A stretch of DNA of 64,000 bases from Bacteriovorax stolpii. GTDB lineage: Bacteria; Bdellovibrionota; UBA2428. Every line of letters starts with the position of its first letter. Position 1 is the first letter of the stretch. The notes under the pieces are model-generated. The model was not told the DNA's origin and did not search any database. It was given only the letters and a program-made list of their open reading frames with translations. The stretch covers positions 54,281-118,280 of the forward strand of contig CAMCVE010000005.1 in NCBI GenBank assembly GCA_945881775.1, given 5' to 3'. Below, piece after piece: positions 1,589-49,586 of this stretch. The translations under genes and the position numbers were made by a program.

Positions 1589-2206
1589 ATGCTGCTCTCG
1601 CTGGCGCCGCTCGAATGCGGAGATTTGACTGGAATCCTCGTATTGCTTCATCGTCAATGGACCTCATCCGCTTCGGGTCAGGCCGAGGACGTCATTGGAA
1701 GCTATGGAGAAGCCTTGTTTCGTCTCCACAACGACACCGAGAGCACAAAGCCCTATCTTGCGAGACTCGGCTCCACCGTCTTGAGCGACCTCGAGTCCGC
1801 ATCTGAAATTTGTATGCGTCGTCTTCCCGATCGCTTCAGAAGAGGCTGCAGTCTCTTTACCTTGGCCCAAGACAGTCGCGCCTCAAAAATGCGTCTCCAC
1901 TACAAAATTCCACCATGGATTCATCTCACACTCGTGAACGAGGATCAGAATGCCTTCGAAATGAGTGGTGCAGAGGAATCTGCATGGAAAACCTTCGACG
2001 AGGCAAAAGGGCACGAGGCCCCTGGGCCTTGGCGCCAGGCCTTGCTAAATTTCTTTGCTCCACCTACGGCACCTAGTCTTCTCCAGCTTCAGCTTCCTTT
2101 GCCTCAAGGGATCACTCACTACCGGCTCGCAGAACTAATTCAAAGATCCACACTTCCCGCGCTTGCTCCTTGTTTTTCTCTGGCCCTCACAGGAAAAAAG
2201 GCGTGA
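1589..2206 (+). CDS. Hypothetical protein (205 aa), no recognisable domain
   Basis: Only sizeable ORF in a same-strand gap between two genes. Overlaps the next ORF by 7 nt. Composition gives no signature. Confidence 0.35.
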   Translation: MLLSLAPLECGDLTGILVLLHRQWTSSASGQAEDVIGSYGEALFRLHNDTESTKPYLARLGSTVLSDLESASEICMRRLPDRFRRGCSLFTLAQDSRASKMRLHYKIPPWIHLTLVNEDQNAFEMSGAEESAWKTFDEAKGHEAPGPWRQALLNFFAPPTAPSLLQLQLPLPQGITHYRLAELIQRSTLPALAPCFSLALTGKKA

Positions 2207-2859
2207 AACGTCCTCTTCTGATCGGCTCCTTGCTCGTTCTTGCCGCGACTGTCCTCAGTATTTTGGGCGTCCGCAAGGAAGAGTTTTTGGTTTCTGAGCG
2301 ATCCGGAGCACCAAAAAATTCTGAGATCGCCTCTTCAAAAGCCGAAGAACAAGAAGTTCTCTCCGGAGCTTCAGACACCTCCGCGGCTCAAGCCATTGAA
2401 CACACCCACACTATGCCCACTGAGGTTGAACTTGAGCGAGAGCTTCCTCAGCGTTTCGGAGTCGAGAAGATCCAAAGCACCGTGGAAGGATTCGAAGCAG
2501 GGATCGAAATCGACGGACTTCCTCTCTTGGGAGCTCGTCTGTTTGTCTCTTCAGGGAGCGGTGGGCTCCGACAACAGATTATTCCCGCGTTGCAGACGCC
2601 TCCCAGAGGCGAGCACAGCCGATCTTTTAACGCCGAAGTCGAAAGCAAAGCGCAAAAAGAGGCGAGTCTTTTGGAGAAGTGCAAAATTATTTCGATTGGG
2701 AAATCGCGCCAAATCTGGTTCAACGCCAACGATGCTGGAGTCGTGCCTGCCTATGCAATTGAAGTTTATGGAATTTGCTCGAGGGAGCGCAAGCGCGAAG
2801 ACTGGATCTACAGAGACCCCGACCTTGAAAGAATCGGGCGTATTCTAAACCGAAACTGA
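2200..2859 (+). CDS. Hypothetical signal-anchored protein. Probable GTG start at 2200; the ATG alternative is at 2170.
   Basis: AGGAAAA Shine-Dalgarno about 8 nt upstream of GTG 2200. N-terminal KRPLLIGSLLVLAATVLSILG hydrophobic anchor. No known motif. Confidence 0.4.
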   Translation, partial: GVKRPLLIGSLLVLAATVLSILGVRKEEFLVSERSGAPKNSEIASSKAEEQEVLSGASDTSAAQAIEHTHTMPTEVELERELPQRFGVEKIQSTVEGFEAGIEIDGLPLLGARLFVSSGSGGLRQQIIPALQTPPRGEHSRSFNAEVESKAQKEASLLEKCKIISIGKSRQIWFNANDAGVVPAYAIEVYGICSRERKREDWIYRDPDLERIGRILNRN

Positions 2860-2874
2860 ACTGGAACGCGTGGC

Positions 2875-3174
2875 TCACTCCTTAATAGGATTCTTCTTCG
2901 AATCGTCGATGAGCTTCTTGAGCTCTTTGCCGACTTTAAAGAATGGAAGTTTTTTCTCAGGAACTCCAACCGCAGTTCCGGTCTTTGGATTACGACCGGT
3001 GTAGCTCTTGTATTGCTTCACGTACCAGCTGCCGAATCCTCGAACCTCGATGCGGTCACCGTTCACCAGCGCCTCGAACATCGTGTCGAAACAACAGTTG
3101 ACGACCGCTTCGACCTTCTTCTTGGTGAGGTTCGTCTTCTCGGTGATGAGGTTTACTAGATCGGATTTGGTCAT
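2875..3174 (-). CDS. HU/IHF-family DNA-binding protein (IHF-beta/HU-like)
   Basis: 99 aa. MTKSDLV..ITEKT.LTKK.VE.VV start, then GFGSW...R.GRNP.TG...V beta-arm with a conserved Pro. These are classical HU/IHF signatures. Confidence 0.85.
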   Translation of the reverse strand: MTKSDLVNLITEKTNLTKKKVEAVVNCCFDTMFEALVNGDRIEVRGFGSWYVKQYKSYTGRNPKTGTAVGVPEKKLPFFKVGKELKKLIDDSKKNPIKE

Positions 3175-3230
3175 GGATATGATTGTGACAAAGATTCCCC
3201 AGACTGGGAAGAGTCAAAGTCTTTCAACTC

Positions 3231-4109
3231 TTAACGCTTGGCATTATTTTGCCAGTATCGAGCTCCACTGAGCGCCGGTAGTCTTTCGCGAAGCTCATTT
3301 TGAGCTGTCAGATCAATATCGGCTACCAAAAGTCCTTCTTCAGAGCCCGGAAGTTCGGCGACCGTCTCGCCCCAGGGACCGTAAATCACGCTATTGCCGT
3401 AACACTGACAAAGCTGGCCTCGTGAATCGGTGTGAAAACCAAATTGACCCGAGGCTACAACGAACGATTGGTTCTCAATCGCGCGGGCACGAAGCAACGT
3501 GTTCCAGTGCGCTTCACCGGTTTCTTGTGCAAAGGCCGCCGGCACGAGAAGTACACTCGCACCTCGTCCGAGCACCATCTCTCTAAAAAGTTCAGGGAAA
3601 CGCAGGTCGTAGCAGATGCTCATCCCCACACGCACGCCGTCAATGTCGACACAGTGAACCGAATCGCCCGGACTGATGTCGCGAGATTCCTCGTAGTGAG
3701 CCTGCCTTCCACGGAACGCAAAGAGGTGCTGCTTTCGATACACCACCATCGTTCCATCTGCCTTGCGAAGTAGATGGGCGTTGTAGGGGTGAGCTTCGTC
3801 ACCGCGGCATTCAAGCGTCGAACCCAGACTCACGGCAGCCGTCCACCCCCGCATGATCTCAGCCAACGCACGTGCAAATTCACGGTCAGGTAGAAGCTCG
3901 CCACGCTCCGAGAAACGCAGACAAATCTCTTTGCGATCGAAGGTCTCCGAGGTTTTTGGACCACGGTAAAAAACATTCTCCGGAAAACAAACGAGATCTG
4001 CGCCGCGCTCAACGGCTTCTTTCACGAAGGAATCGACGACAAGAAGGTTCTCCATCGGGTCTGCGCTTGAACACATCTGAACCAAAGCAATCTTCATTTT
4101 TTCTGACAC
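3231..4109 (-). CDS. Carbon-nitrogen hydrolase (nitrilase/omega-amidase superfamily)
   Basis: 292 aa. Glu-Lys-Cys triad context: VCFPE (Glu), RKQHLF (Lys), MSICYDLRFPE (Cys). Typical Nit-fold order. Confidence 0.85.
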   Translation of the reverse strand: MSEKMKIALVQMCSSADPMENLLVVDSFVKEAVERGADLVCFPENVFYRGPKTSETFDRKEICLRFSERGELLPDREFARALAEIMRGWTAAVSLGSTLECRGDEAHPYNAHLLRKADGTMVVYRKQHLFAFRGRQAHYEESRDISPGDSVHCVDIDGVRVGMSICYDLRFPELFREMVLGRGASVLLVPAAFAQETGEAHWNTLLRARAIENQSFVVASGQFGFHTDSRGQLCQCYGNSVIYGPWGETVAELPGSEEGLLVADIDLTAQNELRERLPALSGARYWQNNAKR

Positions 4110-5539
4110 TCCTCAGACGCCCAAATCAAACCCTGCGGCGGAACCCAATAGATGCTTCTCGCTGGAACTGCGATCCTCGAGGGCAGTCGCTCGTCCGTAA
4201 ATCCCCACTCGCGTCCTTCAAAGTACCACAGCGCAAAAGCTTCCATGCGGTAGACGTCGATCGCTGGCCTAGGAACAAGAACGCGACATCGCGCCGGGGC
4301 GCTGTTCACGCGTTCTCGGATCGCGATGAATTCTTGGCCGCGATTTTCGGTGCTGCTGATTCTTTCGCCTCGCACAATCACAAACGCAACCGCCGCGAGC
4401 AGAGAAACCCAGCGCAACCAAGGACTCACAAGCCACGGGAAGCGCGGAACAAGGAAACTGCGCGCGAGAAAATCTATCGAAAAGCCTGCGAGTGGGGCAA
4501 GAACCAGATAGGTGGGATGCAGATAATGTGGGAGTTTGTAAGATATTAGACTCAGGGGCACGATAAAGGCCGAGAAAAACGAACCCGAAACAAGAATCCA
4601 CCTAACGAGCGTCTTGTCACGAAAGCCTTCTTTGCCGCGAAAAGAGAGGACCAAAGTCATGGGAACCGCCCACCACCACGGCCAAAGGTTTTTTACGATG
4701 ACCTCGATATAATAGAAAAAATTATGAGCTTCACGGAAAAACTCTTCTCCACGATCTGTCGTGGCCGAACGGAAAACTTGTTTTACAAAATAGCCATGCA
4801 ACCACTCAAACAAGGCCGGCTGCTTCACGGCCTGCAGAAGCCAGTAAAGAAAGGGGAGCGCACCAAAGAAAAACAGGGAGAGCCCAAGAAACGGAACAAA
4901 GAAAAGTCTGCGCAGGGGTTTGTTCTCGAGGAAAAAATGTCCGACCACCGCGAGCAAACAGCCACCCCATGCGCCGAGTCCAATAACTCCTTTGATTGCG
5001 CAGGCGAGCGCGATTCCTGCCCCCATCATTAAGACACCACCGAGCTGAACAAAATTTCGGTTCGCGTAGAGATAAACGTAACAACCTAGGGCGGCTAAAA
5101 CGACACCCAGAGCAAGCGGTCCCTCCATCATCGACGTCGAAGCGTATTTGGTGAAATGTACTGTCGAGGTGACAGCGAGAACGGTCCAAGCTGCTACGGA
5201 CCAGCCCCAACTTCTCCAGGTGAAAATGGTGATCATAAAAAGTGCCATGAGTGCCGGCAGGGCTCCCATCGCTTTGGCGCTCCATTCATGAACTCCAAGT
5301 CGAGCCATCAGCCAAGCGCCCCATTGGAAGAAGTAAGGTGGATGCTCAAAGAATTTTGGAAACTTCTCTGCGCTCGCGGAAAGCATCCAGGCCTCGCCCG
5401 TATGGAGAATTTTTTGGGCGAGTCCTGCATAGAGGGCGGCATCCGGTTGCAAACCAATGACGCGGATCGAGGCAAACAGCGCCAGAATCGCGAGTGCACT
5501 TACCCAGGCCGCTTTTTCGAAGATAGAATAGTTTTTCAT
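4094..5539 (-). CDS. Glycosyltransferase family 39 (ArnT/PMT-like, GT-C fold) polytopic membrane protein
   Basis: 481 aa, more than 10 TM helices. N-terminal ..DAALYAGLAQKIL.TGEAWMLS...KFPKFFEHPPYFFQW..W signature of ArnT/PMT_2-type undecaprenyl-phosphate-sugar transferases. Overlaps the C-N hydrolase start by 16 nt. Confidence 0.75.
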   Translation of the reverse strand: MKNYSIFEKAAWVSALAILALFASIRVIGLQPDAALYAGLAQKILHTGEAWMLSASAEKFPKFFEHPPYFFQWGAWLMARLGVHEWSAKAMGALPALMALFMITIFTWRSWGWSVAAWTVLAVTSTVHFTKYASTSMMEGPLALGVVLAALGCYVYLYANRNFVQLGGVLMMGAGIALACAIKGVIGLGAWGGCLLAVVGHFFLENKPLRRLFFVPFLGLSLFFFGALPFLYWLLQAVKQPALFEWLHGYFVKQVFRSATTDRGEEFFREAHNFFYYIEVIVKNLWPWWWAVPMTLVLSFRGKEGFRDKTLVRWILVSGSFFSAFIVPLSLISYKLPHYLHPTYLVLAPLAGFSIDFLARSFLVPRFPWLVSPWLRWVSLLAAVAFVIVRGERISSTENRGQEFIAIRERVNSAPARCRVLVPRPAIDVYRMEAFALWYFEGREWGFTDERLPSRIAVPARSIYWVPPQGLIWASEECQKK

Positions 5540-5602
5540 GGATTCGGCCCGATCCCATTGTAGAGCCCAGACTGCGCACCCTCAAGATGGGCGGAGTGAG
5601 AT

Positions 5603-6259
5603 ATGAACGCTGATCTCGAAAGCGATCCCCTTAAGACGCGCTGCCTACCGGACAGTCTGTGTCTCAAATTGCCCGCATCCTTGGTCGAATGGGACCGATC
5701 GACTCGCGTGAGCTGCCACAAATCGATGGAGGCCCACCCAAAAAGTGTTGAGGCCCTGCGTTGGCTTGTTGAGAAGCCTCCGGGCATTTCCCTTATGGCC
5801 GTCCTGTTCTTGCTGCTTTTTTGGCGCCTCTTTCGATGGCCCAAGCTCCGTCCCGGCGAGATCCTGCGCAAGTTAATCTATCTTGTCGTTGGCGCGGGCC
5901 TCTCAGACCTTTTAGCGAGCAGTCTCAAAGTTGCCATCGGCCGACTCAAACCGCACGTGACGTTCTACAATCCTAACGTTCTCCCCGCCCTAAGCCTCCC
6001 CTCGAATCACGCCTTCAACACGGCCTTTATCTGTGTCTGGTTCTGTCTCGAGAGCGCTCGCCTCCAAGAAAAGTTTACTGGTGCTCGCTTCATTTTTGTG
6101 AGCTTTCTCTTCGCACTCGTCGCCTTCATCGACGTGAGCCGGATGGTGCTCGGTCAGCACTATCCTCTCGACGTGATCGGCGGAAATATCGGAGGAACTC
6201 TGTTTGCACTCATTTATTCGTTTTTGGTGAGTCGCGTGAGGTCCACAAAACCATTGTAG
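5603..6259 (+). CDS. PAP2-superfamily membrane phosphatase (LpxE/PgpB-like). The true start may be internal, Met42 or Met65.
   Basis: The three PAP2 motifs are present in order: KVAIGRLKP (KxxxxxxRP), PSNH (PSGH-like), SRMVLGQHYPLDV (SRxxxxxHxxxD). Divergent from the GT39 gene. Confidence 0.8.
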   Translation: MNADLESDPLKTRCLPDSLCLKLPASLVEWDRSTRVSCHKSMEAHPKSVEALRWLVEKPPGISLMAVLFLLLFWRLFRWPKLRPGEILRKLIYLVVGAGLSDLLASSLKVAIGRLKPHVTFYNPNVLPALSLPSNHAFNTAFICVWFCLESARLQEKFTGARFIFVSFLFALVAFIDVSRMVLGQHYPLDVIGGNIGGTLFALIYSFLVSRVRSTKPL

Positions 6260-7764
6260 GTAAATCCCAGCTTGCGTCCAATTTCGCCCCGAGCCATGTA
6301 GGACTTTGAATAATGATAGAGTGGAATGAGTGCAGCCTCTTTCCAAACCAAAAGATCTTCTGCTTCGAAAACTTTTTTCCAAAAATCTGAATCCGCGCGT
6401 GAGCTAGAGTCGAGAGCTGCGAGTTTTTGGTCGAAGTCCTTCGAAATCCATCGACCAAAGTTATTCAGATTGTTGCCCTCAAAAAGGCTCAGAAAAAACC
6501 GCGGATCCGGGTATACCGCCGTCCACGCGTATCGAAACACCTCGGTTGGAGACTTCTTCAGAACGTCGATATAATGATTCCACTCTTGCGGTTCGAAGAC
6601 CACCTCGAGCCCGAGTCGACGCTGCCAGTTGTTGGCCAGTCGCTCCATGAGCAACTGATGCCGAGATCCCGCTGGATAGCCCAATGCCAACTTCTTAGGA
6701 ACAGGTGTGTTTGCAGCGACTTCTCGCCAGAGACGTTTGGCCTCGACCACATCTTCGGTGTGCGTCCGACGGAATTCCGCAAGTTCCGAAGCAGGAAGCA
6801 GGTCGTCGGGATTTAAGGTGTAGGCAGCACGTTCGCCTCCTTGCAGCAGCGAGGGAATTTCTTCTCGACCCGCACTCAAAGCAAGCGCGCGCCTCAGGCG
6901 CACGTCTTGAGACCAAATCCCGCCCTTTCGAAAATCAAAAGCCACGTAGTAGGTCGCCATCATTGGAACTCGGTGAAAGTCGGGACGCCCTTTGAATTTG
7001 GGCAACAAGGCCTGAGGCACTTCGGTGAGAACCTCAAGGTCCCCTTTTTCGTACATGATGAGCGCGGTATCCGAATCGCGCACAAAAAGGAATTCGACAT
7101 TCGCTGAAAGAAATTGCGAAGGATCCACCGCGGCGATCTTGATGGAGCGCCCCCTCCGCCACTCTAAGAGACGAAAGGGGCCCGAGCTTATGCGGTGCTC
7201 AGCGTCGAGTCCTTCACGCCAAGGCGCGGTCCCTAAGAAAGCCAATGCGTTGAGTAGACTGCGGTCGCGGGGCTTAAGACTCGTAAGAATCAACTCACGA
7301 TCCGTGCATCGCAGTGCCGCCTCAAGTGCAGAGTGATCGCCGACAACGGCCGAAGAGTAGCCCTTGAGATTACGAAAAAGCTCGCTCATGGGACTCAGAA
7401 GGCCGCTGCCTTTGCCGAGCATTTTCAAAATACCCGCTCTGTAGTGACAAGCCGTTAGAGGAGCTCCGTCGGACCATTTTAGCTCTGCACGAAAACGAAG
7501 ACTGAGCTCAAAACCCGTCTCGTTCCAAGAGTAGGACTGCGCAGCATCAGCGTCCCAGTTTCCATCTGCCGCGAAGCGCAGAGGAGGACGAACCAGGTGT
7601 CGCAGAATTACCATCTCGGCACCCGTTTCGGCCAAGTAGGGACTCAGATGTGAAGGTTCCGACGACAATTGCACGCGAAGAGTCTCGCGAAAAGGAGTCG
7701 AAACTTTGGCGTTACACGCTGAGAGGCACAGCGTAGCGAGTCCTAGCATCACAGATATTTTCAT
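6214..7764 (-). CDS. ABC transporter periplasmic solute-binding protein, family 5 (peptide/nickel type), lipoprotein
   Basis: 516 aa. Signal peptide with lipobox LSAC. Length and overall pattern of SBP_bac_5 (DppA/OppA-like). Convergent 46-nt overlap with the PAP2 gene. Confidence 0.7.
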   Translation of the reverse strand: MKISVMLGLATLCLSACNAKVSTPFRETLRVQLSSEPSHLSPYLAETGAEMVILRHLVRPPLRFAADGNWDADAAQSYSWNETGFELSLRFRAELKWSDGAPLTACHYRAGILKMLGKGSGLLSPMSELFRNLKGYSSAVVGDHSALEAALRCTDRELILTSLKPRDRSLLNALAFLGTAPWREGLDAEHRISSGPFRLLEWRRGRSIKIAAVDPSQFLSANVEFLFVRDSDTALIMYEKGDLEVLTEVPQALLPKFKGRPDFHRVPMMATYYVAFDFRKGGIWSQDVRLRRALALSAGREEIPSLLQGGERAAYTLNPDDLLPASELAEFRRTHTEDVVEAKRLWREVAANTPVPKKLALGYPAGSRHQLLMERLANNWQRRLGLEVVFEPQEWNHYIDVLKKSPTEVFRYAWTAVYPDPRFFLSLFEGNNLNNFGRWISKDFDQKLAALDSSSRADSDFWKKVFEAEDLLVWKEAALIPLYHYSKSYMARGEIGRKLGFTYNGFVDLTRLTKNE

Positions 7765-7788: not shown

Positions 7789-10332
7789 ATGAAACTGCTC
7801 AAACGGATTTTCATAGTTTTCTTGGTCGGCTTCGGCGTCGCAGTCATCGGCGCCGTCACACTGCTTGCAACTTACTCGGCGGATCTACCCAATCTCGACA
7901 GCCTGGTTCACTATTCTCCTAAACTGGTCACAACAATTTACTCAAAAGACGACAAAGTCATCGCAAGCTACGCCCAGGAGCGCCGAATCTATATTCCGCC
8001 TTCGGAAACCCCAGAGAATGTCGCCAATGCCTTTATTGCCGCCGAAGATGACGAGTTTTACACCCACTCCGGCATCAACCCGATCACGATTGCGCGGGCT
8101 GCATGGAAGAATTTTCGTGCAGGAGCAACCGTTCAAGGGGGATCTACGATCACCCAACAGGTGGCAAAATCGTTTCTTCTCACACCAGAAAAATCTTACA
8201 AGCGGAAACTCAAAGAAGTTATCCTTGCGTTCCGCATCGAAAAAACTCTCACGAAAGAACAAATTCTAAACCTCTACCTCAATCATATTTTCTTGGGACA
8301 AAACTCTTATGGCATTGAAGCCGCAGGTCTGACTTATTTTGGAAAATCCGCGAAAGACTTGAGCATTGCTGAAGCCGCAGTGCTTGCGGGACTGCCGCGC
8401 GCGCCCTCGAGAGACAATCCCGCGGTGGCTCCTCGCGCTGCCAAACACCGCCAGACCTATGTCTTAGGACGCCTGCTTGCGACTCAAAAAATCAGTAAGC
8501 CGGAATATGACGCCGCCGTGGCCGAAGAGATCAAAATCGTAAACACCGCACCGGGACTTGTGAGCCCCGCCCCTTACCTTGCGGAATACATCCGCCGCGA
8601 ACTCCTCGAAAAATACGGCGAAGAGCGCGTCAACCAAGGTCTCACTGTGTACACAACGGTGCGCCTCGACCGCCAATTAGCGGCACAAAAGTCGATTGAT
8701 CTAGGGCTCCGTGAGGTCGACAAACGTATGGGTCTCAGGCGACCCGCCCTTCATCTCAAAACCAAGACCGACATTGAAGCCTGGAGTGCGAAGAAGCACC
8801 AAGAGCTGGTCAAATCATTCTACAATTTCCGCGTCATCGATGCGCAAGGCGAGATTCACGAACCCGTCGCCAGCGACACTCCCACGCCCATAGAAATCGG
8901 AAAAAACTACCTGGGTGTGGTCGTGGCCAAAGACCGAGCTAAGCGTGCGCTCAAAGTGCAGATCGGCAACCGCACGGGCGAAGTTCTTCCTGAAGACTAT
9001 CGCTGGACGCTCGAAGCCAATCCCGACGAAGTCTACGGTGAAAAAGTTATTCGTAGCCCTATCGGCGAACTTCAGGTCGGTGACGTGATCACGGTGCAGC
9101 CTCGCGTGCTAGACGAAAAAAACCTCTATATGAAGCTCGAGCAAGAACCCGTGGTCCAGGGAGCTTTGATCGCTTACGATGTCAAAGACGGTTCGCTCCA
9201 AGCTATTGTCGGAGGATACGACTTCACCAAAACGGGCTCGCACTTCAACCGAGCATTTCAGGCCATTCGGCAGCCAGGCTCCACATTCAAACCCTTTGTG
9301 TATGGAGCAGCCCTTGAGTCAGGACTGACCCCATCCACGATTATCGTGGACTCGCCCATCGTGTACCACAACCAAGACGAACAAACACAACTCGAGAGCG
9401 TGTGGAAGCCGGACAACTACGGCGAGAAATTCTACGGCGACACGACTCTTCGCAATGCGATTGCCTACTCACGAAACATTCCAACGATCAAGCTGCTGCA
9501 GTACCTCAAAGTCCCCACTGTGATCGACTTTGCCCGCAAACTTGGTATCACGTCGAAACTCGCTCCTGACCTCTCTCTCGGACTTGGGAGTTCGGGCATT
9601 GGCCTGAATGAGATGGTGGGAGCGTGGTCCGTCTTTGCCAACCAAGGTCGTCGTCAGAATCACTTCGCCGTCGAGAGGGTCTTGGACTGGGGGGGCAACG
9701 TTCTTGAAGAAAACAAACCCGTTCCCCTCGTTGAGCAGACTCAGATCATCGACCCCAAGGTCGCCTTCCTGATCACGAGCCTTCTTCGTTCTGTTGTCGA
9801 CTACGGCACGGCAACGATTGTTCAACAGCTCAAGCGCCCTCTTGCTGGAAAAACCGGAACCACGAACGATTACAAAGACGCGTGGTTTTTTGGGTACTCT
9901 CCGCAGCTCATCGGCGGCGTATGGATTGGTTTTGACGAGGACCGCCCCATCGGACGCAACGAGACCGGAACCCGTTCGGCAGCGCCCATCTGGATTTCCT
10001 ATATGCAAGAAGCTTTCAAGGATCTGCCTGTTGAAGACTTCGAAATTCCTGAAGGAATCATCCAGGTGAAAGTCGACACCCAAACCGGAGACGTCCCCAC
10101 CCCATCGACTCAGAAGACTGTCACGGAGTATTTCATCGATGGACTCGCGCCTGGCCAGACTGCTAAGGTCGACGAGAATTCGAACCTGGCAGCGCTCGCA
10201 AACGAAGGACCGCGCGTGCTAAAGACCCAGGTCATTACCGGTAATCCTGACCTCTCGACGACGACATCGCGTCCGACGGGAGCCCCCGATTCCGGAGCGG
10301 GCATGGACGATCTCATGCGGGATGATTTGTAA
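7789..10332 (+). CDS. mrcA: Penicillin-binding protein 1A (bifunctional transglycosylase/transpeptidase)
   Basis: 847 aa. N-terminal TM. GT51 motifs EDDEFYTHSGINP and GGSTITQQV. Transpeptidase motifs STFKP, SRN, KTGT. Confidence 0.9.
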   Translation: MKLLKRIFIVFLVGFGVAVIGAVTLLATYSADLPNLDSLVHYSPKLVTTIYSKDDKVIASYAQERRIYIPPSETPENVANAFIAAEDDEFYTHSGINPITIARAAWKNFRAGATVQGGSTITQQVAKSFLLTPEKSYKRKLKEVILAFRIEKTLTKEQILNLYLNHIFLGQNSYGIEAAGLTYFGKSAKDLSIAEAAVLAGLPRAPSRDNPAVAPRAAKHRQTYVLGRLLATQKISKPEYDAAVAEEIKIVNTAPGLVSPAPYLAEYIRRELLEKYGEERVNQGLTVYTTVRLDRQLAAQKSIDLGLREVDKRMGLRRPALHLKTKTDIEAWSAKKHQELVKSFYNFRVIDAQGEIHEPVASDTPTPIEIGKNYLGVVVAKDRAKRALKVQIGNRTGEVLPEDYRWTLEANPDEVYGEKVIRSPIGELQVGDVITVQPRVLDEKNLYMKLEQEPVVQGALIAYDVKDGSLQAIVGGYDFTKTGSHFNRAFQAIRQPGSTFKPFVYGAALESGLTPSTIIVDSPIVYHNQDEQTQLESVWKPDNYGEKFYGDTTLRNAIAYSRNIPTIKLLQYLKVPTVIDFARKLGITSKLAPDLSLGLGSSGIGLNEMVGAWSVFANQGRRQNHFAVERVLDWGGNVLEENKPVPLVEQTQIIDPKVAFLITSLLRSVVDYGTATIVQQLKRPLAGKTGTTNDYKDAWFFGYSPQLIGGVWIGFDEDRPIGRNETGTRSAAPIWISYMQEAFKDLPVEDFEIPEGIIQVKVDTQTGDVPTPSTQKTVTEYFIDGLAPGQTAKVDENSNLAALANEGPRVLKTQVITGNPDLSTTTSRPTGAPDSGAGMDDLMRDDL

Positions 10333-11132: not shown

Positions 11133-11156
11133 GAGTCGGTCTTATTCGTCCGACTC
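11133..11156. terminator. Hairpin GAGTCGG-N10-CCGACTC between convergent map and lipoprotein genes (candidate bidirectional terminator)
   Basis: Perfect 7-bp inverted repeat spanning the 18-nt convergent gap and the last codons of the minus-strand gene. Confidence 0.4.
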
Positions 11157-11846
11157 GCCTGTCTCGTCGGTCTCGCGCTGGAACTTGCGTTTGGAAAGAG
11201 CTTCGGGGTTCGAGGTCTCTCTCTTTTTAGCACGCCAGACTTTATAGCCCTGAGGACCTGTAACCCACTCACCTTTACCTTCTCCGTCTTCAGGACTGAG
11301 ACCGTTGGCGATGATCGCCTCGCGGTGTTTCTGCTCACAGATATCGATGTCTGTGGTGAACTCAGCTTTGCGAGCGGCAAGAACTTTTTTGTATCCACGG
11401 AAACGCTCGATGCGGTCACGGAGCTTTTCTTCGGTGACACCCACCAGGTTGCCCTGTTCATCGATCACAAACTTCAGATCCTCTTCGGTCTCAGTAACCC
11501 GTCCCGAAGTCGCCATAGGTTTGAGCTTACCCGTACCGCCAATGCGAGGATCGGCGAGCTTCTTCTCACAGTCTTTGTTGACTCCTTGGAGGCCTCGGGT
11601 GCCGTACTTCTCATTGCCGTAGACATCATTTTCCAAGACATAAACTTCTTTTTCGAGTCCGCGAAGCGACTCCGCGAGAAACACCTTGGTCTGCACAAGA
11701 ACCTTGCCGTCTTTGTCGAGACCAACGGTGTTGCCGTTCACGGTTTGGGATTTTTCGAGACGTGTGTCTTTCTCCTCAGCTTTGTCCTTTGAAGCGCAAG
11801 CTCCCATTCCCAACAAAGCGAGTGCAGCCAAAAATTGCATTTTCAC
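11142..11846 (-). CDS. Hypothetical lipoprotein, charged and Lys/Glu-rich
   Basis: 234 aa. Signal peptide MKMQFLAALALLGMGAC, lipobox-like. No known domain. Confidence 0.5.
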   Translation of the reverse strand: MKMQFLAALALLGMGACASKDKAEEKDTRLEKSQTVNGNTVGLDKDGKVLVQTKVFLAESLRGLEKEVYVLENDVYGNEKYGTRGLQGVNKDCEKKLADPRIGGTGKLKPMATSGRVTETEEDLKFVIDEQGNLVGVTEEKLRDRIERFRGYKKVLAARKAEFTTDIDICEQKHREAIIANGLSPEDGEGKGEWVTGPQGYKVWRAKKRETSNPEALSKRKFQRETDETGESDE

Positions 11847-12380: not shown

Positions 12381-13076
12381 ATGACAATCGCTCACACCAA
12401 AGAAAGCCTTCAATTCGCCAAGTTTTTCGATCACACGCTTCTTAAGCCCGAAGCGACTGCTGCCCAGATCGAGACCCTTTGCCTCGAGGCCCGTCAAAAT
12501 CTTTTCTACACCGTATGCGTCAACGCGGGATGGATACCTCTGGCGAGCTCTCTACTCAAAGGCACGGATGTGCTGCCGATCACAGTTGTGGGGTTTCCCT
12601 TGGGGGCAACACTCACTCGAGCCAAGGCCCTTGAGGCCGAAGAAGCCATCAAGGTCGGTGCTCGCGAGATCGACATGGTGCTCAACGTGGGCTGGCTCAA
12701 GTCAGGTCGAGCAAACGACTGCGAAAAAGATATTCGCGATGTCGTGAAAGCCTCGGGTCAGGCATCCGTCAAAGTCATCCTAGAAACCTCACTACTCGAC
12801 ACCGAGGAAATTGCGCTTGCCTCGCGACTCAGTGAGGCGGCAGGTGCCGCCTTCATCAAAACAAGCACCGGCTTTGGTTCTCGTGGTGCCAGTCGCGACG
12901 ATATTCTGACGATGAGGTCCAGCGTTTCTCCAAAAATGCTCATCAAAGCAAGTGGGGGACTGCGCACCCTTGATGCCGTGGAGACAATGATTGCCGCAGG
13001 GGCCAGCCGTGTCGGATCTTCGTCGTCGGTGCAGATTCTTCGAGATTGGGCCCAGAAAAACGGAGTCGCGCTATGA
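12381..13076 (+). CDS. deoC: Deoxyribose-phosphate aldolase
   Basis: 231 aa. Catalytic Lys in FIKTSTGF, then IKASGGLRT and GASRVGSSS motifs. Confidence 0.9.
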   Translation: MTIAHTKESLQFAKFFDHTLLKPEATAAQIETLCLEARQNLFYTVCVNAGWIPLASSLLKGTDVLPITVVGFPLGATLTRAKALEAEEAIKVGAREIDMVLNVGWLKSGRANDCEKDIRDVVKASGQASVKVILETSLLDTEEIALASRLSEAAGAAFIKTSTGFGSRGASRDDILTMRSSVSPKMLIKASGGLRTLDAVETMIAAGASRVGSSSSVQILRDWAQKNGVAL

Positions 13077-14299
13077 CACCACAAGCCCCCTTTGATCGTG
13101 TGATCTTGGTTGTTCTCGACTCGGTCGGAATGGGAGCGGCTCCCGACGCTGGCCGCTTTGGCGACGAAGGCTCGCATACACTCGGACACATTGCCCAGTG
13201 GTGCCACAAAAATGGAAAATCGTTTGAGCTTCCCCACCTCAGCCGCTGGGGACTTGGAGAGCTCGTGCAGGCACCAGGTTTCGAAAGAAATGCCGCCCAC
13301 GCCGCAAGTCTTGCAGCGCTTGAAGAAATTTCCCCCGGCAAGGATACCACCACGGGACACTGGGAAATTTCCGGCACACCGCTGACGAAGGAATTTCCGG
13401 TCTATCCCCAAGGTTTCAGTGAGACGATTCTAAAAAAATGGGCAGCAGAGAATCAACTCGCAGGTTGGCTTTGCAATGCGCCCGGATCCGGAACCCAGGT
13501 GCTCACGGACTACGGCCTCGAGCACATGAAGAACCATAAGCCCATCGTTTACACCTCCGCCGACAGCGTCTGGCAGATCGCCGCTCACGAAGAAAGCTTC
13601 GGTCTCGAGAAGCTATATCAAATTTGTCGTTCTGCTCGCGTCTACGCCGATCAACTCGGCCTAGGACGAGTCATTGCCCGCCCTTTTGTAGGCGACTCAC
13701 CTGTAACTTTCCAACGCACCGAGAACCGTCGTGACTTCTCTGAAATGCCCCCGGCACCCAACATGCTCGATGCGATCAAAGGGGCTGGATGTTTTGTTGG
13801 AGGGGTCGGAAAGATCGAAGATATTTTTGCGCACCGTGGCCTTACGCTCTCAAATCACACCGGCCGCAACGAAACCAGCCAAGAAGCCACTCTTCAGATG
13901 ATGCACGAGACCCGCGGAAAGCGTGGTCTGGTGTTCACGAATCTCATCGACTTCGACATGCTCTATGGCCATCGTCGCGATCCCGCTGGATACGCCGACT
14001 GTCTAGTGCGCTTTGACGAATACCTCCCTCGGCTTGAGGCCGCCGCTGGACCGCGCGATCTTGTGATCCTGACTGCCGATCATGGGAACGATCCCACTCA
14101 CTCAGGAACGGATCACACTCGTGAACGAGTTCCTCTTCTTTTCTGGTCGAAAAATACGACGTTTAGGCCCAAAAATTTTGGCCGCCTCAGGGGATTTCAT
14201 CAGATTGCTCGCCTCTGTCTCGAGAGCCTTGGCCTTGATGCGCTTAGAGAAGTGCCCTCACTAAAAGATTCCATGTCATTGCTCAGCGGTGAATCCTGA
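13073..14299 (+). CDS. deoB: Phosphopentomutase. Start set at ATG 13073, which overlaps the deoC stop as ATGA.
   Basis: N-terminal FDRVILVVLDSVGMG metal-binding motif, about 400 aa of the alkaline-phosphatase-like fold. The ORF-track start at 13046 would overlap deoC by 31 nt. Confidence 0.85.
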   Translation: MTPQAPFDRVILVVLDSVGMGAAPDAGRFGDEGSHTLGHIAQWCHKNGKSFELPHLSRWGLGELVQAPGFERNAAHAASLAALEEISPGKDTTTGHWEISGTPLTKEFPVYPQGFSETILKKWAAENQLAGWLCNAPGSGTQVLTDYGLEHMKNHKPIVYTSADSVWQIAAHEESFGLEKLYQICRSARVYADQLGLGRVIARPFVGDSPVTFQRTENRRDFSEMPPAPNMLDAIKGAGCFVGGVGKIEDIFAHRGLTLSNHTGRNETSQEATLQMMHETRGKRGLVFTNLIDFDMLYGHRRDPAGYADCLVRFDEYLPRLEAAAGPRDLVILTADHGNDPTHSGTDHTRERVPLLFWSKNTTFRPKNFGRLRGFHQIARLCLESLGLDALREVPSLKDSMSLLSGES

Positions 14300-15666
14300 T
14301 GCTTCCAGTCGCCGAAATCATCCGTAAAAAACGTGAAGCTCAGCCCCTCAATTCAGAGGAGCTTGCTTTTCTCGTCAAAGGATTTTCTGACGGGAGCATC
14401 CCGGATTACCAAATCTCTGCGTGGCTCATGGCGAGCTTTCTTTGCGGTATGGACCGAGAGGAAACCTTCGTCTTGACGACGCTCATGCGCAACTCTGGCA
14501 AAACTCTCGACTGGCGCCAGCTAAGTCAAAACTTTAAATCAGCGCGCTTTGCCGACAAGCATTCCACCGGAGGAGTCGGCGACAAGGTCTCGCTGATTCT
14601 CGCGCCCTTGGCCGTCTGCTTGGGTCTCAAGGTTCCCATGATGAGCGGCCGCGGCCTGGGCCACACCGGAGGAACAGTCGACAAACTGGAGTCGATACCT
14701 GGTTTTTCGATGCGTCTCGACGAGAAGCAAATGATCCGCTGTCTCGACGAGGTCGGTGTCTGCATGATGTCCCAGAGTTCAGAATTGTGTCCGGCCGATA
14801 AAAAGTTGTATTCGCTAAGAGACGTTACGGCCACCGTCGAGAGCATTCCCCTGATCACAGCCTCGATTGTCTCAAAGAAGTGGGCCGAAGGCATCGATGC
14901 CATCGTCTACGACGTAAAATGTGGAAGCGCTGCTTTTATGGCTCACCTGGATCAAGCGGAAAATCTTTCGCGTAGTCTCGTACGCATTTCGCAGAAAGCG
15001 GGAATCAAGGCTCTCGCTTGCGTGACCCGCATGGAAGAGCCCCTTGGATCTTACGTGGGCAACTCCATGGAGGTCGAAGAGTCGATCTGGATTCTCAAAG
15101 ATGAGTACCCGAGTCCTCTCCACCGCGAGATCATTGCTCCCCTGAGGCAGCTTTGTATCGATCTTTCCTCTGAGATGGCCGTGCTTGCTGGAACCAGGGC
15201 CGACATGAGTACGGCGCGCGTCGACTGTGAGGCCGCCATCTCCTCGGGAGAGGCTTACCGTGTTTTCGAAAAAATGCTCAAGACCCAAGGCGCGCACGAC
15301 AACTGGTTTGAGTCCTTACCTCGAGCGAAGCACCAGCTTGTTTATGAGTCTCCGGAAGCCGGACATGTTCTTGAGATCCTGTCGCGCGATCTGGGAATCC
15401 TCGGCGTTAAACTCGGCGTAGGCCGCGAGAAGAGCGAAGACAGTGTCGATCCTGCAATTGGTTTCGAGATGCTTGTGCGCCCCGGAATGCGCGTCGAGCG
15501 TGGAACCCCGCTTTTGAAATTTCACGCCCATACGCCCGATGCTCTCGACAGTATTCGCGATGCTCTCGAGAAAATTTTCATCATCGAAGACCATCCCGAG
15601 AAGCTCCGCATCCTCGGAGGAGCTTCAAAGACCACAAACCTGCTCATGGAAAGGGTCCACGTATGA
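14299..15666 (+). CDS. deoA: Thymidine/pyrimidine-nucleoside phosphorylase
   Basis: 455 aa. HSTGGVGDKVSL and SGRGLGHTGGTVDKLE signatures. ATGA overlap with the deoB stop. Confidence 0.9.
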   Translation: MLPVAEIIRKKREAQPLNSEELAFLVKGFSDGSIPDYQISAWLMASFLCGMDREETFVLTTLMRNSGKTLDWRQLSQNFKSARFADKHSTGGVGDKVSLILAPLAVCLGLKVPMMSGRGLGHTGGTVDKLESIPGFSMRLDEKQMIRCLDEVGVCMMSQSSELCPADKKLYSLRDVTATVESIPLITASIVSKKWAEGIDAIVYDVKCGSAAFMAHLDQAENLSRSLVRISQKAGIKALACVTRMEEPLGSYVGNSMEVEESIWILKDEYPSPLHREIIAPLRQLCIDLSSEMAVLAGTRADMSTARVDCEAAISSGEAYRVFEKMLKTQGAHDNWFESLPRAKHQLVYESPEAGHVLEILSRDLGILGVKLGVGREKSEDSVDPAIGFEMLVRPGMRVERGTPLLKFHAHTPDALDSIRDALEKIFIIEDHPEKLRILGGASKTTNLLMERVHV

Positions 15667-16532
15667 TCAACCCAGCTTCGTTCTCACTCAAAAAAATCTT
15701 CGAGAAGCGTGCTATTCCGGCACCCGAACTCCATATCGTTCTCGGATCTGGACTTGCACCCGCTTTTAGCATGAGTGTTCCCGAGGGGAGTGTCCAAGCT
15801 CTCGCAGAAATTGGTTTCGCAGAAGTCGAAGGACTCCTCCCCTCCTCGGCTCCTGGCCACAAGGGCGCGTTCCGAATTTACCTCGACAAGAAAACGGGTA
15901 AGACCTTCTCTTTCCAGATGGGCCGTCTTCACGGTTACGAAGGGCATGCGCCTCAGTCGGTCGTGCAGCCCCTTGTTCAGATGGCGCTGAGCGGGACTCC
16001 GAAGTTCCTCCTCACAAACGCGTCTGGTTCGCTGCAACCCTCATACTTGCCTGGTTCTCTCATGATCATCGAAGATCACGTCAATCTCACGGGCCAGAGT
16101 CCGCTCTACGGACCCAACTCTCTCGACGCGAAAGGACAGCCGTACGGACCTCGCTTTACGGATATGAGCCACGCTTACGACGAGTCTCTCAATGCACTGC
16201 TCGAAAAAACTCTCTTGGCCTCGAAGCTCAGTGTCCACCGAGGCACCTACCTCGGCGTCAACGGACCTACCTTCGAAACTCCTGCCGAAGTGAAGCTCTT
16301 CTCGAAGTGGGGACTCGGTGCCGTGGGAATGTCGACCGTCTGGGAAACGATGGCTCTCAATTATCTCTCTCGCCGCGTAGCGGGACTTTCGTTTATTTCT
16401 AATCTCGGCTGTGGGCTCGTCGCCAAGCAAGCCCTCTCTCACGAAGAAGTGGAAGAAGAAGGCCGACGTATCGCACCCGTACTTCTCAAAAGCATCTTCG
16501 ACTACGCTGCCGCCACTCTTTCCGAGGTATAG
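15663..16532 (+). CDS. punA: Purine nucleoside phosphorylase (trimeric PNP-I family, PunA/XapA type)
   Basis: 289 aa. HIVLGSGL, LTNASGSL, GPTFETPAE and MSTVWE motifs. ATGA overlap with the deoA stop. Confidence 0.85.
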   Translation: MINPASFSLKKIFEKRAIPAPELHIVLGSGLAPAFSMSVPEGSVQALAEIGFAEVEGLLPSSAPGHKGAFRIYLDKKTGKTFSFQMGRLHGYEGHAPQSVVQPLVQMALSGTPKFLLTNASGSLQPSYLPGSLMIIEDHVNLTGQSPLYGPNSLDAKGQPYGPRFTDMSHAYDESLNALLEKTLLASKLSVHRGTYLGVNGPTFETPAEVKLFSKWGLGAVGMSTVWETMALNYLSRRVAGLSFISNLGCGLVAKQALSHEEVEEEGRRIAPVLLKSIFDYAAATLSEV

Positions 16533-16538
16533 ATATTT

Positions 16539-17849
16539 ATGAAAACTTTCGACACCCTTCTCAAAGCTCAGCACATCAGCACTCTTCAAAAGGGCCGCCC
16601 TTTCGTCGAGAAAGACACCTGCATTGGTATCAGCGGCAAAGAGATCGCCTACGTCGGCCCACACACGGCCGACTTGTCGGCAAAAACCGTAACCGACTAC
16701 GGTGAGGCTTGGATTATTCCTGGACTTATCAATGCGCACACTCATCTGCCGATGACACTTTTCCGAGGCTTCTCGGATGACGAACCTTTGCAAGACTGGC
16801 TCACCAAACACATTTTTCCGGCTGAAGCTCGACTGGTAAATCCAGAATTCTGTCGTATCGGGACCGAAATTGCTGCCCTTGAAGCGATGCTCAGCGGGAC
16901 CACTTGCTTTGCGGACATGTATTATTTCGAACCTGATATCGCAGACGTCATGGATAAGTCGGGAATGCGGGCCTTCCTTGGCGAGTCGGTCATCGATTTC
17001 CCAACTCCCGACAACAAGAAAAAAGATGGCAGCGACTACCGCCTCCTGGAAGAGCTCATCGAGAGAACACGAGGCCACTCGCGCCTTGCGGCGATGATCG
17101 CGCCCCACGCGCCCTACACCTGCTCCGACGAGACGCTGAGGCGTGCTGCGGATTTCGCGCGTGCTAAGAATATTCTGCTCAGCGTGCACGTTTCCGAAAC
17201 AGCTTTTGAAGTCGCCGAATCCCGCAAGAACTTCGGCGGGAAAACCCCTGTCGAGCGTTTGCTAGGTCTGGGCGTGCTCGACACCCCCGCACTCTTCGCC
17301 CACTGCGTGCACGTCACGGATTCTGACATCGAGATCATGGCCCAAAAACCTGTGGCTGCAATCTATAACCCTGAGAGCAACATGAAGCTTGGGTCAGGTG
17401 CCGCTCCCGTGCGGAAAATGCTCGACGCCGGAGTTTGTGTTGCGCTTGGAACCGACGGCTGCGCCTCGAACAACGATCTCAACATGATCCGAGAAATGGA
17501 CACCGGAGCAAAACTCCAGAAGCTTTCTCTCGCCGACAATTCCGCAATCACCGCACAGGAACTCATCGAACTAGCGACAGTGGGTGGAGCGAAGGCTCTC
17601 CAGATCAGCGAGCGCGTGGGACAACTGAAAGTGGGCCTCAGTGCAGACCTTGTAGCGATCGATCTGCGTCGCCCCCACCTGCAGCCCGTGCATGAAGTGG
17701 CGAGCCTGATCTATTCGCTTCAAGGAAACGAAGTGAAGGACGTCTTTGTTGAAGGGCGCAAAGTCGTCGAGAACGGCCGCTCGCTTACGATTGACCAAGA
17801 GGGGCTCATGGATCGACTGAGCTTCTATAGAAGCAAAGCTGGCTTCTAG
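16539..17849 (+). CDS. Amidohydrolase-superfamily deaminase (MtaD/SAH-MTA deaminase- or guanine deaminase-like)
   Basis: 436 aa. IINAHTHLPM metal-binding HxH motif, SVHVSE, ALGTDG..SNNDLNM. 6 nt after punA. Confidence 0.75.
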   Translation: MKTFDTLLKAQHISTLQKGRPFVEKDTCIGISGKEIAYVGPHTADLSAKTVTDYGEAWIIPGLINAHTHLPMTLFRGFSDDEPLQDWLTKHIFPAEARLVNPEFCRIGTEIAALEAMLSGTTCFADMYYFEPDIADVMDKSGMRAFLGESVIDFPTPDNKKKDGSDYRLLEELIERTRGHSRLAAMIAPHAPYTCSDETLRRAADFARAKNILLSVHVSETAFEVAESRKNFGGKTPVERLLGLGVLDTPALFAHCVHVTDSDIEIMAQKPVAAIYNPESNMKLGSGAAPVRKMLDAGVCVALGTDGCASNNDLNMIREMDTGAKLQKLSLADNSAITAQELIELATVGGAKALQISERVGQLKVGLSADLVAIDLRRPHLQPVHEVASLIYSLQGNEVKDVFVEGRKVVENGRSLTIDQEGLMDRLSFYRSKAGF

Positions 17850-17919: not shown

Positions 17920-19176
17920 ATGAAATCGCGCATCGCTGCCCTCGGCTTCCTTCTCTCGACGGCCCTTGTTCACGCCCAAGTCATTAGCCCTTATGGCGAA
18001 GAACTCGAGATCACCTATCAAACAAGTTTCATCAGCTCCAACGACGATGAAGACGTGGTCACTGCCGCCTCAACTCATTCGGACTACCTCATGGGAGTCC
18101 TCAAGAGCGAAGCGCTTGTCGAAAGCCTCGGCGTAAGTTTTGCGGGATCTGAAGGCCTCGGGGCTCCTCGACTCCCCCTCAAGATTACCGCAGTGAAGGA
18201 AAAGACTCTGGCCGATGGACGCACAGAAATTTCCTATAAGTACCGGGCGAAGGCGATCATTCACAAGACGGCCGCAAAACGCCTTCTGCAAAAAGGCACA
18301 CTTGATCTCGTGTTACCTTACGACCTCGACAAGGTTTACGATAAGAAGTGCACAGACTCGCACTATCCTTCATTCGGGGACTACTGGTATTTTTGGGACC
18401 CTTACCGTGCTGGCTGTGAGAACCTTCTCAAAGAGCCTGCCACTCGCTATGTCCAAGTGAGCGTTAAGCCACTTGAGTACAAACGCCTTGAGGAGAACAC
18501 ACGCCTTGACCTTGTGCGTGGGGACAATGGCAACGGTAAGCTCCTGCAAATCGACCTCATCAGCGGCTTCGACGAATCTGCAGGGCGCAGAGACATTGGC
18601 TGGAAGATTTTTAGGAACCTCAACTCTTCACTCGAAACGCGTTTTGGATTCGAACTCGTAAAAAAAGCAGGATCGGCTAAGAGCCCTTTGTATCTCTTTG
18701 AGAAACATCTCGAATCAGGCGTCAAAGTTCTCGTGAGACATCTGCTCGTAGATACGGCAATCAACTCGAGATCACTCGCTTTTGCGAGGTTCTTCAAAAA
18801 AAGTGTTCGCGATGCCGACCTTATTGTCTATTCGGGACATTCAGGGCTAGGCGGGAATCTCGATATTCCCTCGTTGCAGGAAAAGGCCGGCGCATTTGAG
18901 TTTAATCCCAAAAAACGCCAGATCTTCTTCTTTAACAGCTGCTCATCGTATTCATACTATCTCGATCATTTCCGCAGCGAGAAGACAAAGGCCCGCATCG
19001 ATATTCTCACCAACGCGCTCGCAGCGTACATGGACGACGAGTCACTCGAAGTGCAAAGCCTTCTTGAGAGCGTGCTCGACGAGAGCGAGTCTCCTGCTTG
19101 GATGAAGGTCCTCAAAAAAATGGAAGTTTCCATTCCCTTCAACATGACCTATCTGCTCAACGTGGGTGGCGTTTAA
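17920..19176 (+). CDS. Secreted hypothetical protein. Its C-terminal region has a caspase-fold-like His...Cys arrangement, a weak call.
   Basis: Signal peptide MKSRIAALGFLLSTALVHAQV. DLIVYSGHSG (beta-strand then His), then about 38 residues, then QIFFFNSCSS (beta-strand then Cys). Confidence 0.5.
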   Translation: MKSRIAALGFLLSTALVHAQVISPYGEELEITYQTSFISSNDDEDVVTAASTHSDYLMGVLKSEALVESLGVSFAGSEGLGAPRLPLKITAVKEKTLADGRTEISYKYRAKAIIHKTAAKRLLQKGTLDLVLPYDLDKVYDKKCTDSHYPSFGDYWYFWDPYRAGCENLLKEPATRYVQVSVKPLEYKRLEENTRLDLVRGDNGNGKLLQIDLISGFDESAGRRDIGWKIFRNLNSSLETRFGFELVKKAGSAKSPLYLFEKHLESGVKVLVRHLLVDTAINSRSLAFARFFKKSVRDADLIVYSGHSGLGGNLDIPSLQEKAGAFEFNPKKRQIFFFNSCSSYSYYLDHFRSEKTKARIDILTNALAAYMDDESLEVQSLLESVLDESESPAWMKVLKKMEVSIPFNMTYLLNVGGV

Positions 19177-49549: not shown

Positions 49550-49586
49550 CTCAATACCCTCCCAGGTTGTTTTCAATTCGAAGACT

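Follow-up and report, generated by a model that had tools for sequence, protein, structure and literature searches.

Neutral, mannosylated lipid A has been described in Bdellovibrio, and two adjacent genes in a Bdellovibrio-like genome raise the question of whether their products form a dedicated pair for this kind of lipid A remodeling. The genes lie in a 64,000-nucleotide (nt) stretch of the Bacteriovorax stolpii assembly GCA_945881775.1 (contig CAMCVE010000005.1, positions 54,281 to 118,280 of the forward strand), which we refer to as the window, and encode a membrane glycosyltransferase of the GT-C fold class (hereafter GT-C) and a PAP2 phosphatase. A preliminary description of the window had put them forward as a candidate pair for lipid A dephosphorylation and glycosylation. 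The enzyme types, the precedents in other bacteria and a translational coupling seen in two relatives all agree with that proposal, but dedicated pairing does not hold across the family. Comparison with relatives gives a dedicated lipid A pair weak support, and recycling of carrier lipid fits at least as well. The reading that we tentatively favor, and which may well prove wrong, is a small island of variable gene content whose enzymes act on polyprenyl-linked lipids at the periplasmic face, and in which the PAP2 protein would mainly recycle the carrier and the GT-C would decorate an envelope glycoconjugate. The pair is laid out as follows:

4094..5539, minus strand: GT-C glycosyltransferase gene, 481 amino acids (aa), polytopic
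5540..5602: divergent intergenic region between the GT-C and PAP2 genes, 63 nt
5603..6259, plus strand: PAP2 phosphatase gene, 218 aa

The open reading frame (ORF) list, from which both genes are taken, confirms the arrangement first described, a pair at 4094-6259 standing head to head across a 63-nt spacer. The spacer holds a sigma-70-like promoter match for the GT-C gene, TTGAGG-17-TACAAT at 5585..5557 on the minus strand (a match to consensus only), as well as the Shine-Dalgarno sequence of the PAP2 gene, GGAG 8 nt upstream of the ATG. Both ORFs are genuine genes, and identical copies of the two occur on a 294-kb metagenomic contig.

Two divergent protein families

Searched as a single sequence, the 481-aa protein matched nothing in Pfam (even at E<=10), in NCBIfam or, by phmmer, in the PDB. 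A search of 5.8 billion proteins returned about 33 homologous clusters, 34-90% identical to it and sharing 43 invariant columns, and a profile built from the 32-member family matched ArnT of Cupriavidus metallidurans (5ezm) at E 1.6e-15 across residues 11-364, with 17-18% identity. ArnT (PmrK; CAZy GT83; 5EZM, 5F15) resembles the GT-C in size, in membrane architecture and in its small C-terminal periplasmic domain, and it is structurally a clearly better match than Pmt1, Pmt2 or Pmt4. The GT-C fold expected of an ArnT/GT83-type enzyme, a polytopic N-terminal membrane domain followed by a C-terminal periplasmic domain, is present; the latter is a small alpha/beta domain (residues ~395-481) in which a pair of cysteines, C418 and C478, is nearly invariant.

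The N-terminal signature of ArnT runs DExRYA ... YFEKP. Its skeleton is recognizable in the GT-C as D..YA.....[M/I]...G..W.........FE.P....W, with the signature positions D33, Y37, A38, E65 and P67 kept. Six residues that fall on ArnT positions are invariant in the family: D33 (ArnT D55), Y37 (Y59), E65 (E84), E139 (D158, thus Glu for Asp), K183 (K203) and Y339 (Y345). Among these, D33, Y37, E65 and E139 are the acidic and aromatic residues that correspond to the first periplasmic loops of ArnT. Other ArnT residues are replaced, invariantly or nearly so: A34 stands for E56, L36 for R58 and H66 for K85. In ArnT, K85 reportedly binds the phosphate of undecaprenyl phosphate, and H265 and H267 are said to be zinc ligands; neither histidine is conserved in the family in the alignment to 5ezm, and an [E/Q]HPP motif is widespread in the surrounding PMT_2 superfamily. 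Because the profile match is joined by family-invariant residues on ArnT positions, we read the GT-C as a periplasmic-face enzyme of ArnT-like fold that uses a polyprenyl-phosphate-sugar type of donor.

The family is sharply bounded. When 1.84 billion representatives were searched exhaustively with the profile, no full-length member fell below 260 bits and nothing else scored above 127, and a profile search of a word-indexed database gained only two distant PMT_2 proteins. Around the family lies a superfamily of 4618 profile matches, whose nearest outgroups carry PMT or PMT_2 domains. Pfam PMT_2 (PF13231) is matched by 4/32 members (best E 1.2e-9), the window protein not being one of them at E<=10. 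Matches to curated models are scattered and include weak ones to Agl23 (6/32), to the glycan hexose transferase WsfD (1/32) and to the NCBIfam ArnT model PRK13279 (1/32, E 1.3e-3), the last without a match to the window protein. No member matches Pfam PMT (PF02366) or carries an MIR domain, as a GT39 protein O-mannosyltransferase would be expected to. Judged from these comparisons, the GT-Cs make up a divergent PMT_2/ArnT-like subfamily at the edge of the PMT_2 model, and the window protein is neither an ArnT ortholog nor a GT39 protein mannosyltransferase. Of the original label "GT39/ArnT-type", the ArnT-like fold therefore survives and the GT39 assignment falls away, as does ArnT orthology, given the replacement of E56, R58 and K85. 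The gene neighborhood likewise differs from that of ArnT: no arnABCDEF-type genes and no lpx, waa or polyprenyl-phosphate sugar synthase genes occur among the 47 window ORFs scanned with Pfam, a scan that left outside it about 19 ORFs of at least 180 aa between 29 and 64 kb.

The 218-aa protein is less cryptic. It has 32 homologous clusters and matches Pfam PAP2 (PF01569) at 3.3e-17 (62.9 bits against a cut-off of 27.2), and an AlphaFold2 (AF2) model with a pLDDT of 92.8 confirms the PAP2 fold. Its closest match in both profile and structure is B. subtilis PgpB/YodM 5jki (profile E 1.4e-16; Foldseek 2.8e-5), followed by human lipid phosphate phosphatases and then by Aquifex LpxE 6ebu (1.5e-6; Foldseek 2e-3) and E. 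coli PgpB. With B. subtilis PgpB/YodM (5JKI), E. coli PgpB and YbjG, SepP and Aquifex LpxE (6EBU) it shares the fold and the catalytic triad motifs, and presumably a periplasmic active site. The catalytic residues K109, H136, R180, H186 and D190 are invariant across the family alignment, and the protein is an intact integral-membrane lipid phosphate phosphatase of the PAP2 family.

The earlier claim that all three PAP2 motifs are present needs refinement. Motif 3 is canonical (S179-R-X5-H186-X3-D190, for SRX5HX3D). Motif 1 reads K109X6K116P, with Lys where canonical KX6RP has Arg, and motif 2 reads P133-S-N-H136 instead of PSGH. These are family traits that set the protein apart from the PgpB, YodM and LpxE group: every one of the 27 aligned members has this Lys in motif 1, and at the Gly position of motif 2 each has either Asn or Ser. 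A further family-specific feature is a polar N-terminal segment of 58 aa with a conserved DPLxTR[C/S]LP sequence, after which hydropathy indicates five hydrophobic helices. The segment is 55-60 residues long in the family, and some homologs add a signal-anchor-like hydrophobic stretch before it. In the window protein (residues 1-58; window 5603-5780) it is modeled with high confidence, and one subgroup has a Cys pair there. A polar N-terminus followed by five helices is also the architecture of Aquifex LpxE, and the N-terminus is therefore implied to be periplasmic, where it may form a cap over the active site.

Curated models place the PAP2 family near enzymes of carrier lipid metabolism, at a distance. 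SepP is matched by 27/27 members, the YbjG type by 23/27 and PgpB by 22/27, and no other curated family recurs. The best E-values to these NCBIfam models range from 8e-10 to 4e-11 and the scores are only ~20-45 bits against cut-offs of 229-261; the window protein itself scores 18-22 bits against the undecaprenyl-diphosphatase and PgpB models (YbjG PRK11837, SepP, PgpB PRK10699), well below equivalog level. By these scores SepP, YbjG and PgpB are relatives, not equivalogs. The LpxE/LpxF family is itself defined by function, its members sharing little sequence beyond the PAP2 motifs (PMC6581854).

A variable site beside PBP1A

We compared the window with 17 related loci. All named members of the GT-C family come from metagenome-assembled genomes (MAGs) of uncultured Bdellovibrionota, Bacteriovoracaceae or similar organisms, which marks this genome as Bdellovibrionota-like. 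Scanning 185,579 species-representative genomes for the GT-C signature pattern recovered 8 MAG loci only and no cultured Bdellovibrio genome, although cultured Bdellovibrio species are the only organisms in which a mannosylated lipid A is documented. Four genes flank the pair in the window:

2875..3174, minus strand: HU/IHF-beta-like DNA-binding protein, 99 aa (Pfam Bac_DNA_binding 2.1e-30)
3231..4097, minus strand: Nit-type C-N hydrolase, soluble (Pfam CN_hydrolase 1.7e-46)
6214..7764, minus strand: family-5 solute-binding protein (SBP5, peptide/Opp-type), convergent with PAP2
7789..10332, plus strand: class A penicillin-binding protein PBP1A (transglycosylase and transpeptidase), assigned by synteny and by homologs that carry Pfam Transgly and Transpeptidase

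In the relatives these genes belong to a conserved backbone of FHA/TPR protein, two hypothetical proteins, HU, [monofunctional transglycosylase, MTG], C-N hydrolase, [GT-C], [Wzy_C], [PAP2], [SBP5], PBP1A, Met-aminopeptidase and DeoC, in which the bracketed genes are variable. The arrangements that we observed at the variable positions are these:

Window, L001, L002, L003, L016 and the P0011 contig: PAP2 divergent from GT-C
L002, L003, L016 and the P0011 contig: PAP2 directly before PBP1A on the same strand, SBP5 not at this position
L012 and L017: PAP2 followed by GT-C on one strand, with an ATGA overlap
L017: in addition, a PIG-V-like second GT-C next to Wzy_C (2073-3176 and 3187-4359, both minus strand)
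L004: Wzy_C (4869-5996, minus strand) and PAP2 in an operon, overlapping at the Wzy_C stop, divergent from GT-C
L009: GT-C and Wzy_C, no PAP2
L015: Wzy_C and PAP2, in that order and overlapping, no GT-C
L014: MTG and PAP2, in that order and overlapping at the MTG stop; no GT-C, hydrolase or Wzy_C

Wzy_C, an O-antigen-ligase family protein, is thus present in L004, L009, L012, L015 and L017, and the second GT-C of L017 is a 367-aa PIG-V-like protein (PF04188, 27.4 bits). SBP5 is missing between PAP2 and PBP1A in L002, L003, L016 and the P0011 contig, which suggests that it was inserted there; in the window, the 3' ends of PAP2 and SBP5 overlap by 46 nt (6214-6259). Taken together, the GT-C/PAP2 site, as seen in gene order, appears to behave as a variable envelope-glycan island next to PBP1A.

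PAP2 and GT-C are directly adjacent in 8/12 backbone genomes, the count that bears on whether they are linked as a lipid A remodeling pair. Two of the eight have the ATGA overlap, yet all belong to one clade. In a neighbor-joining tree every backbone GT-C falls in this clade (71% bootstrap) and the non-backbone members branch earlier. Because the backbone GT-Cs form a single clade with whole-region synteny, the adjacency goes back essentially to a single event in their ancestor and was passed on from there. Inside the clade we see one kind of adjacency-preserving rearrangement together with reciprocal losses (L009 versus L014 and L015). Outside it, in the three lineages of non-backbone loci, no PAP2 gene lies within the 5-6 kb flanks examined, and the company kept by GT-C is different:

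L005 and L008: TetR-like neighbor and gamma-glutamyltranspeptidase
L006: gamma-glutamyltranspeptidase
L007, L013 and L018: GT-C beside 2-oxoglutarate dehydrogenase
L010: DMT_6, GT-C and GT4 in a row, with rmlA and rmlC

The divergently transcribed neighbors of GT-C in L005/L008 (198 aa) and L007 (174 aa) were considered as degenerate PAP2s and dropped, as both are soluble and give no PAP2 match; one of them carries a helix-turn-helix (TetR-like by eye, with no Pfam match). L010 is the only GT-C locus with a small DMT_6 protein and a GT4 beside GT-C. Its 119-aa DMT_6 protein (DUF486, EamA-like; 4652-5011, plus strand) is a small membrane protein whose gene overlaps the GT-C start. By analogy with ArnE/ArnF, it may serve as a subunit of a flippase that moves a polyprenyl-phosphate sugar.

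On the other side of GT-C, the preliminary description had the gene co-transcribed with the C-N hydrolase and the HU-like gene. The first half of this stands: the GT-C stop codon overlaps the hydrolase ATG as ATGA, so the two genes are translationally coupled. The hydrolase start is likely this ATG at 4097 rather than a GTG at 4109, and alignments of its homologs begin at residue 5. Its top NCBIfam match is deaminated glutathione amidase, far under the cut-off. Co-transcription with the HU-like gene, separated from the hydrolase by a 56-nt gap that holds a weak terminator-like hairpin, is less certain. We dropped HU as a conserved operon member with the glycosyltransferase and regard it as a backbone neighbor, because in several relatives an oppositely oriented MTG gene lies between HU and the hydrolase. 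The HU-like protein matches NCBIfam IHF-beta at 1.8e-30, under the cut-off, and the L001 copy is 100% identical.

Two further recurrences around the GT-C family deserve a mention. Its members are repeatedly found beside gamma-glutamyl or glutathione-type amide enzymes: the Nit-type hydrolase in the backbone clade, and gamma-glutamyltranspeptidase, immediately or ~3 kb downstream of GT-C, in early-branching lineages (window 3231-4109, minus strand; L005/L008 7621-9348; L006 2091-3800; L013 9469-11298; L018 8573-10354). Family-5 peptide-binding proteins are also often close by, with no evident mechanistic link to GT-C.

Carrier recycling, lipid A remodeling or inherited adjacency

In the account that we tentatively favor, the GT-C would work at the outer face of the inner membrane, taking a single sugar from an undecaprenyl-phosphate-sugar donor and attaching it to an envelope glycoconjugate. 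Lipopolysaccharide (LPS), either lipid A or core, would be the leading acceptor candidate, because ArnT is the closest structure and because Wzy_C, PIG-V-like, GT4 and rml genes are neighbors in relatives. The PAP2 protein would be a broad PgpB/LpxE-type phosphatase facing the periplasm, and its main job would be to convert undecaprenyl diphosphate (C55-PP), supplied by its recurrent neighbors PBP1A, MTG and Wzy_C, to undecaprenyl phosphate, which would then be recharged with sugar for the GT-C. It may also dephosphorylate lipid A, in the manner of the trifunctional Aquifex LpxE. That carrier recycling is probably the core role of PAP2 follows from its coupled partners MTG, Wzy_C and PBP1A, which release C55-PP, and from its nearest curated relatives, which are undecaprenyl-diphosphatases. 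Closest homologs of that kind with conserved synteny, in taxa with ordinary bis-phosphorylated lipid A, were what the preliminary description held would speak against lipid A chemistry, and in part they are what we found, the undecaprenyl-diphosphatases being the nearest curated PAP2 families, all of them weak matches. PAP2 is kept where GT-C is missing (L014, L015) and GT-C is kept without PAP2 (L009 and five non-backbone loci); the two genes lie together and are probably co-regulated, but would not form an obligate two-step pair.

Several observations pull the other way. The PAP2 scores to undecaprenyl-diphosphatase models are far under the cut-offs, and substrate specificity is not readable from the sequence. 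The architecture of the protein, with its polar N-terminus and five transmembrane helices, is that of Aquifex LpxE and unlike that of the 6-helix YodM and PgpB (PMC6581854). In addition, the adjacency survived rearrangement into the ATGA overlap of L012 and L017, which argues for selection on co-expression beyond what carrier recycling needs. Finally, these genomes may also carry BacA/UppP or other PAP2 paralogs.

Some of these observations are among the attractions of a dedicated lipid A pair, an account that we consider possible but rather unlikely. Here the PAP2 protein, acting like LpxE or LpxF, would strip the 1- or 4'-phosphate and the GT-C would add a sugar, such as mannose, which would lower the negative charge of lipid A, as in Bdellovibrio bacteriovorus. 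In the Rhizobiales (LpxE with RgtF, LpxF with RgtD) and in Francisella (LpxF with FlmK), a lipid A phosphate is replaced by galacturonic acid (GalA) or mannose (PMC7795004, PMC2233673), and Francisella lipid A receives mannose and galactosamine only when FlmK, an ArnT homolog, is present (PMC2233673). These systems combine the same enzyme types, a PAP2 phosphatase and an ArnT-like GT-C, both of which work at the periplasmic face, the latter with a polyprenyl-phosphate-sugar as donor. ArnT, which among solved structures comes nearest to the GT-C, is itself a lipid A transferase, and the five-helix form of the PAP2 protein, the adjacency in 8/12 backbone genomes, the translational coupling in L012 and L017 and the LPS-type neighbors in relatives (Wzy_C and the PIG-V-like GT-C) all lend themselves to this account. 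The literature that we searched assigns no enzymes to Bdellovibrio lipid A mannosylation.

Set against this is the distribution of the genes. Unlike in a LpxE/RgtF-type system, association with PAP2 is not a general property of the GT-C family; the adjacency derives from a single clade with whole-region synteny, early-branching GT-Cs have no nearby PAP2, and each gene occurs alone in some backbone loci. PAP2 is coupled equally to MTG, Wzy_C and PBP1A, and the GT-C signature occurs in no cultured Bdellovibrio among the species representatives scanned. At the level of the proteins, ArnT E56, R58 and K85 are not conserved in the GT-C, and the PAP2 profile match to LpxE is much weaker than that to YodM/PgpB. 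The window offers one such phosphatase and one such transferase, with no lpx or sugar synthase gene among its scanned ORFs. Carrier recycling and lipid A remodeling could to some extent coexist, since LpxE enzymes have more than one function: those of Aquifex and Francisella also hydrolyze C55-PP (PMC6581854), and LpxE/HupA is the main C55-PP phosphatase of H. pylori (PMC6748449).

Less probable still is that the two genes are functionally unrelated neighbors, with a GT-C that glycosylates proteins in PMT-like fashion, or another envelope polymer, beside a housekeeping phosphatidylglycerophosphate or undecaprenyl-diphosphate phosphatase, their adjacency simply inherited. Whole-region synteny would account for the adjacency without any functional link. 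The nearest GT-C outgroups carry PMT and PMT_2 domains, and weak matches to Agl23 outnumber the single ones to WsfD and to the ArnT model. The Wzy_C family also includes O-oligosaccharyltransferases, and the early-branching GT-Cs sit beside TetR-like, gamma-glutamyltranspeptidase and 2-oxoglutarate dehydrogenase genes. However, the family lacks MIR domains and Pfam PMT matches and structurally resembles ArnT clearly better than Pmt1, Pmt2 or Pmt4, and full independence is hard to square with the ATGA coupling of PAP2 and GT-C in L012 and L017. In Gram-negative bacteria, the PMT_2/ArnT-like enzymes characterized so far have, to our knowledge, lipid A or the LPS core as their target (see also PMC7795004, PMC2233673).

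Genomic setting and implications

The genes around the pair are of a housekeeping kind. The pair is flanked by the FHA/TPR protein, HU and the C-N hydrolase on one side and by SBP5, PBP1A and Met-aminopeptidase on the other. Farther away, the window encodes the following:

12381-17849: nucleoside catabolism cluster with DeoC aldolase, phosphopentomutase-like metalloenzyme, pyrimidine-nucleoside phosphorylase, purine nucleoside phosphorylase-family protein and amidohydrolase
21386-42406: large flagellar cluster with sigma factor, MinD/ParA-type ATPase, SRP54-type GTPase and FHIPEP-family (FlhA), FlhB-, FliR- (Bac_export_1) and FliP-family proteins
21386-42406: same flagellar cluster, also with FliM, FliL, FlgE, FlgD, a FliK-like protein, a type III secretion system (T3SS)-type (FliI-like) ATPase and a FliF-family M-ring protein
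48170-50894: ftsA/ftsZ
52826-54049, plus strand: fusion of vitamin K epoxide reductase (VKOR) and a DsbA-like thioredoxin, a few kb from ftsA/ftsZ

Further Pfam matches are to purA, a LysR-type regulator and a 982-aa TPR protein. Three ORFs have no Pfam family: 17920-19176 (plus strand, 418 aa), 11142-11846 (minus strand, 234 aa) and 2170-2859 (plus strand, 229 aa), the last of which keeps its place next to HU in relatives.

The locus gives no direct test of Bdellovibrio lipid A mannosylation: its carriers have yet to be cultured, and the family did not turn up in cultured Bdellovibrio, where the chemistry was shown. It also counsels caution: when a whole clade is syntenic, conserved adjacency says little about whether two genes work as a pair. 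What the analysis defines is a small, sharply bounded GT-C subfamily of about 30 clusters that standard domain models miss, and a PAP2 subfamily whose motif substitutions are invariant. In addition, it documents an envelope-glycan island of variable content that keeps to one site beside PBP1A in uncultured Bdellovibrionota. The most far-reaching possibility, which we regard as doubtful, is that a lineage-specific, Pfam-invisible GT-C and a five-helix KX6KP PAP2 phosphatase with its N-terminus outside, joined in some members by a Wzy_C ligase and a PIG-V-like GT-C, swap lipid A phosphates for neutral sugars. If the lipid A reading is true, these would be the enzymes for a phosphate-free, glycosylated lipid A in predatory bacteria, with relevance to cationic peptide resistance and low endotoxicity. 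The chemistry would then depend on enzymes that are not orthologs of ArnT, RgtD, RgtF or FlmK, and the pair would for the first time open the "neutral lipid A" phenotype of Bdellovibrio to genetics.

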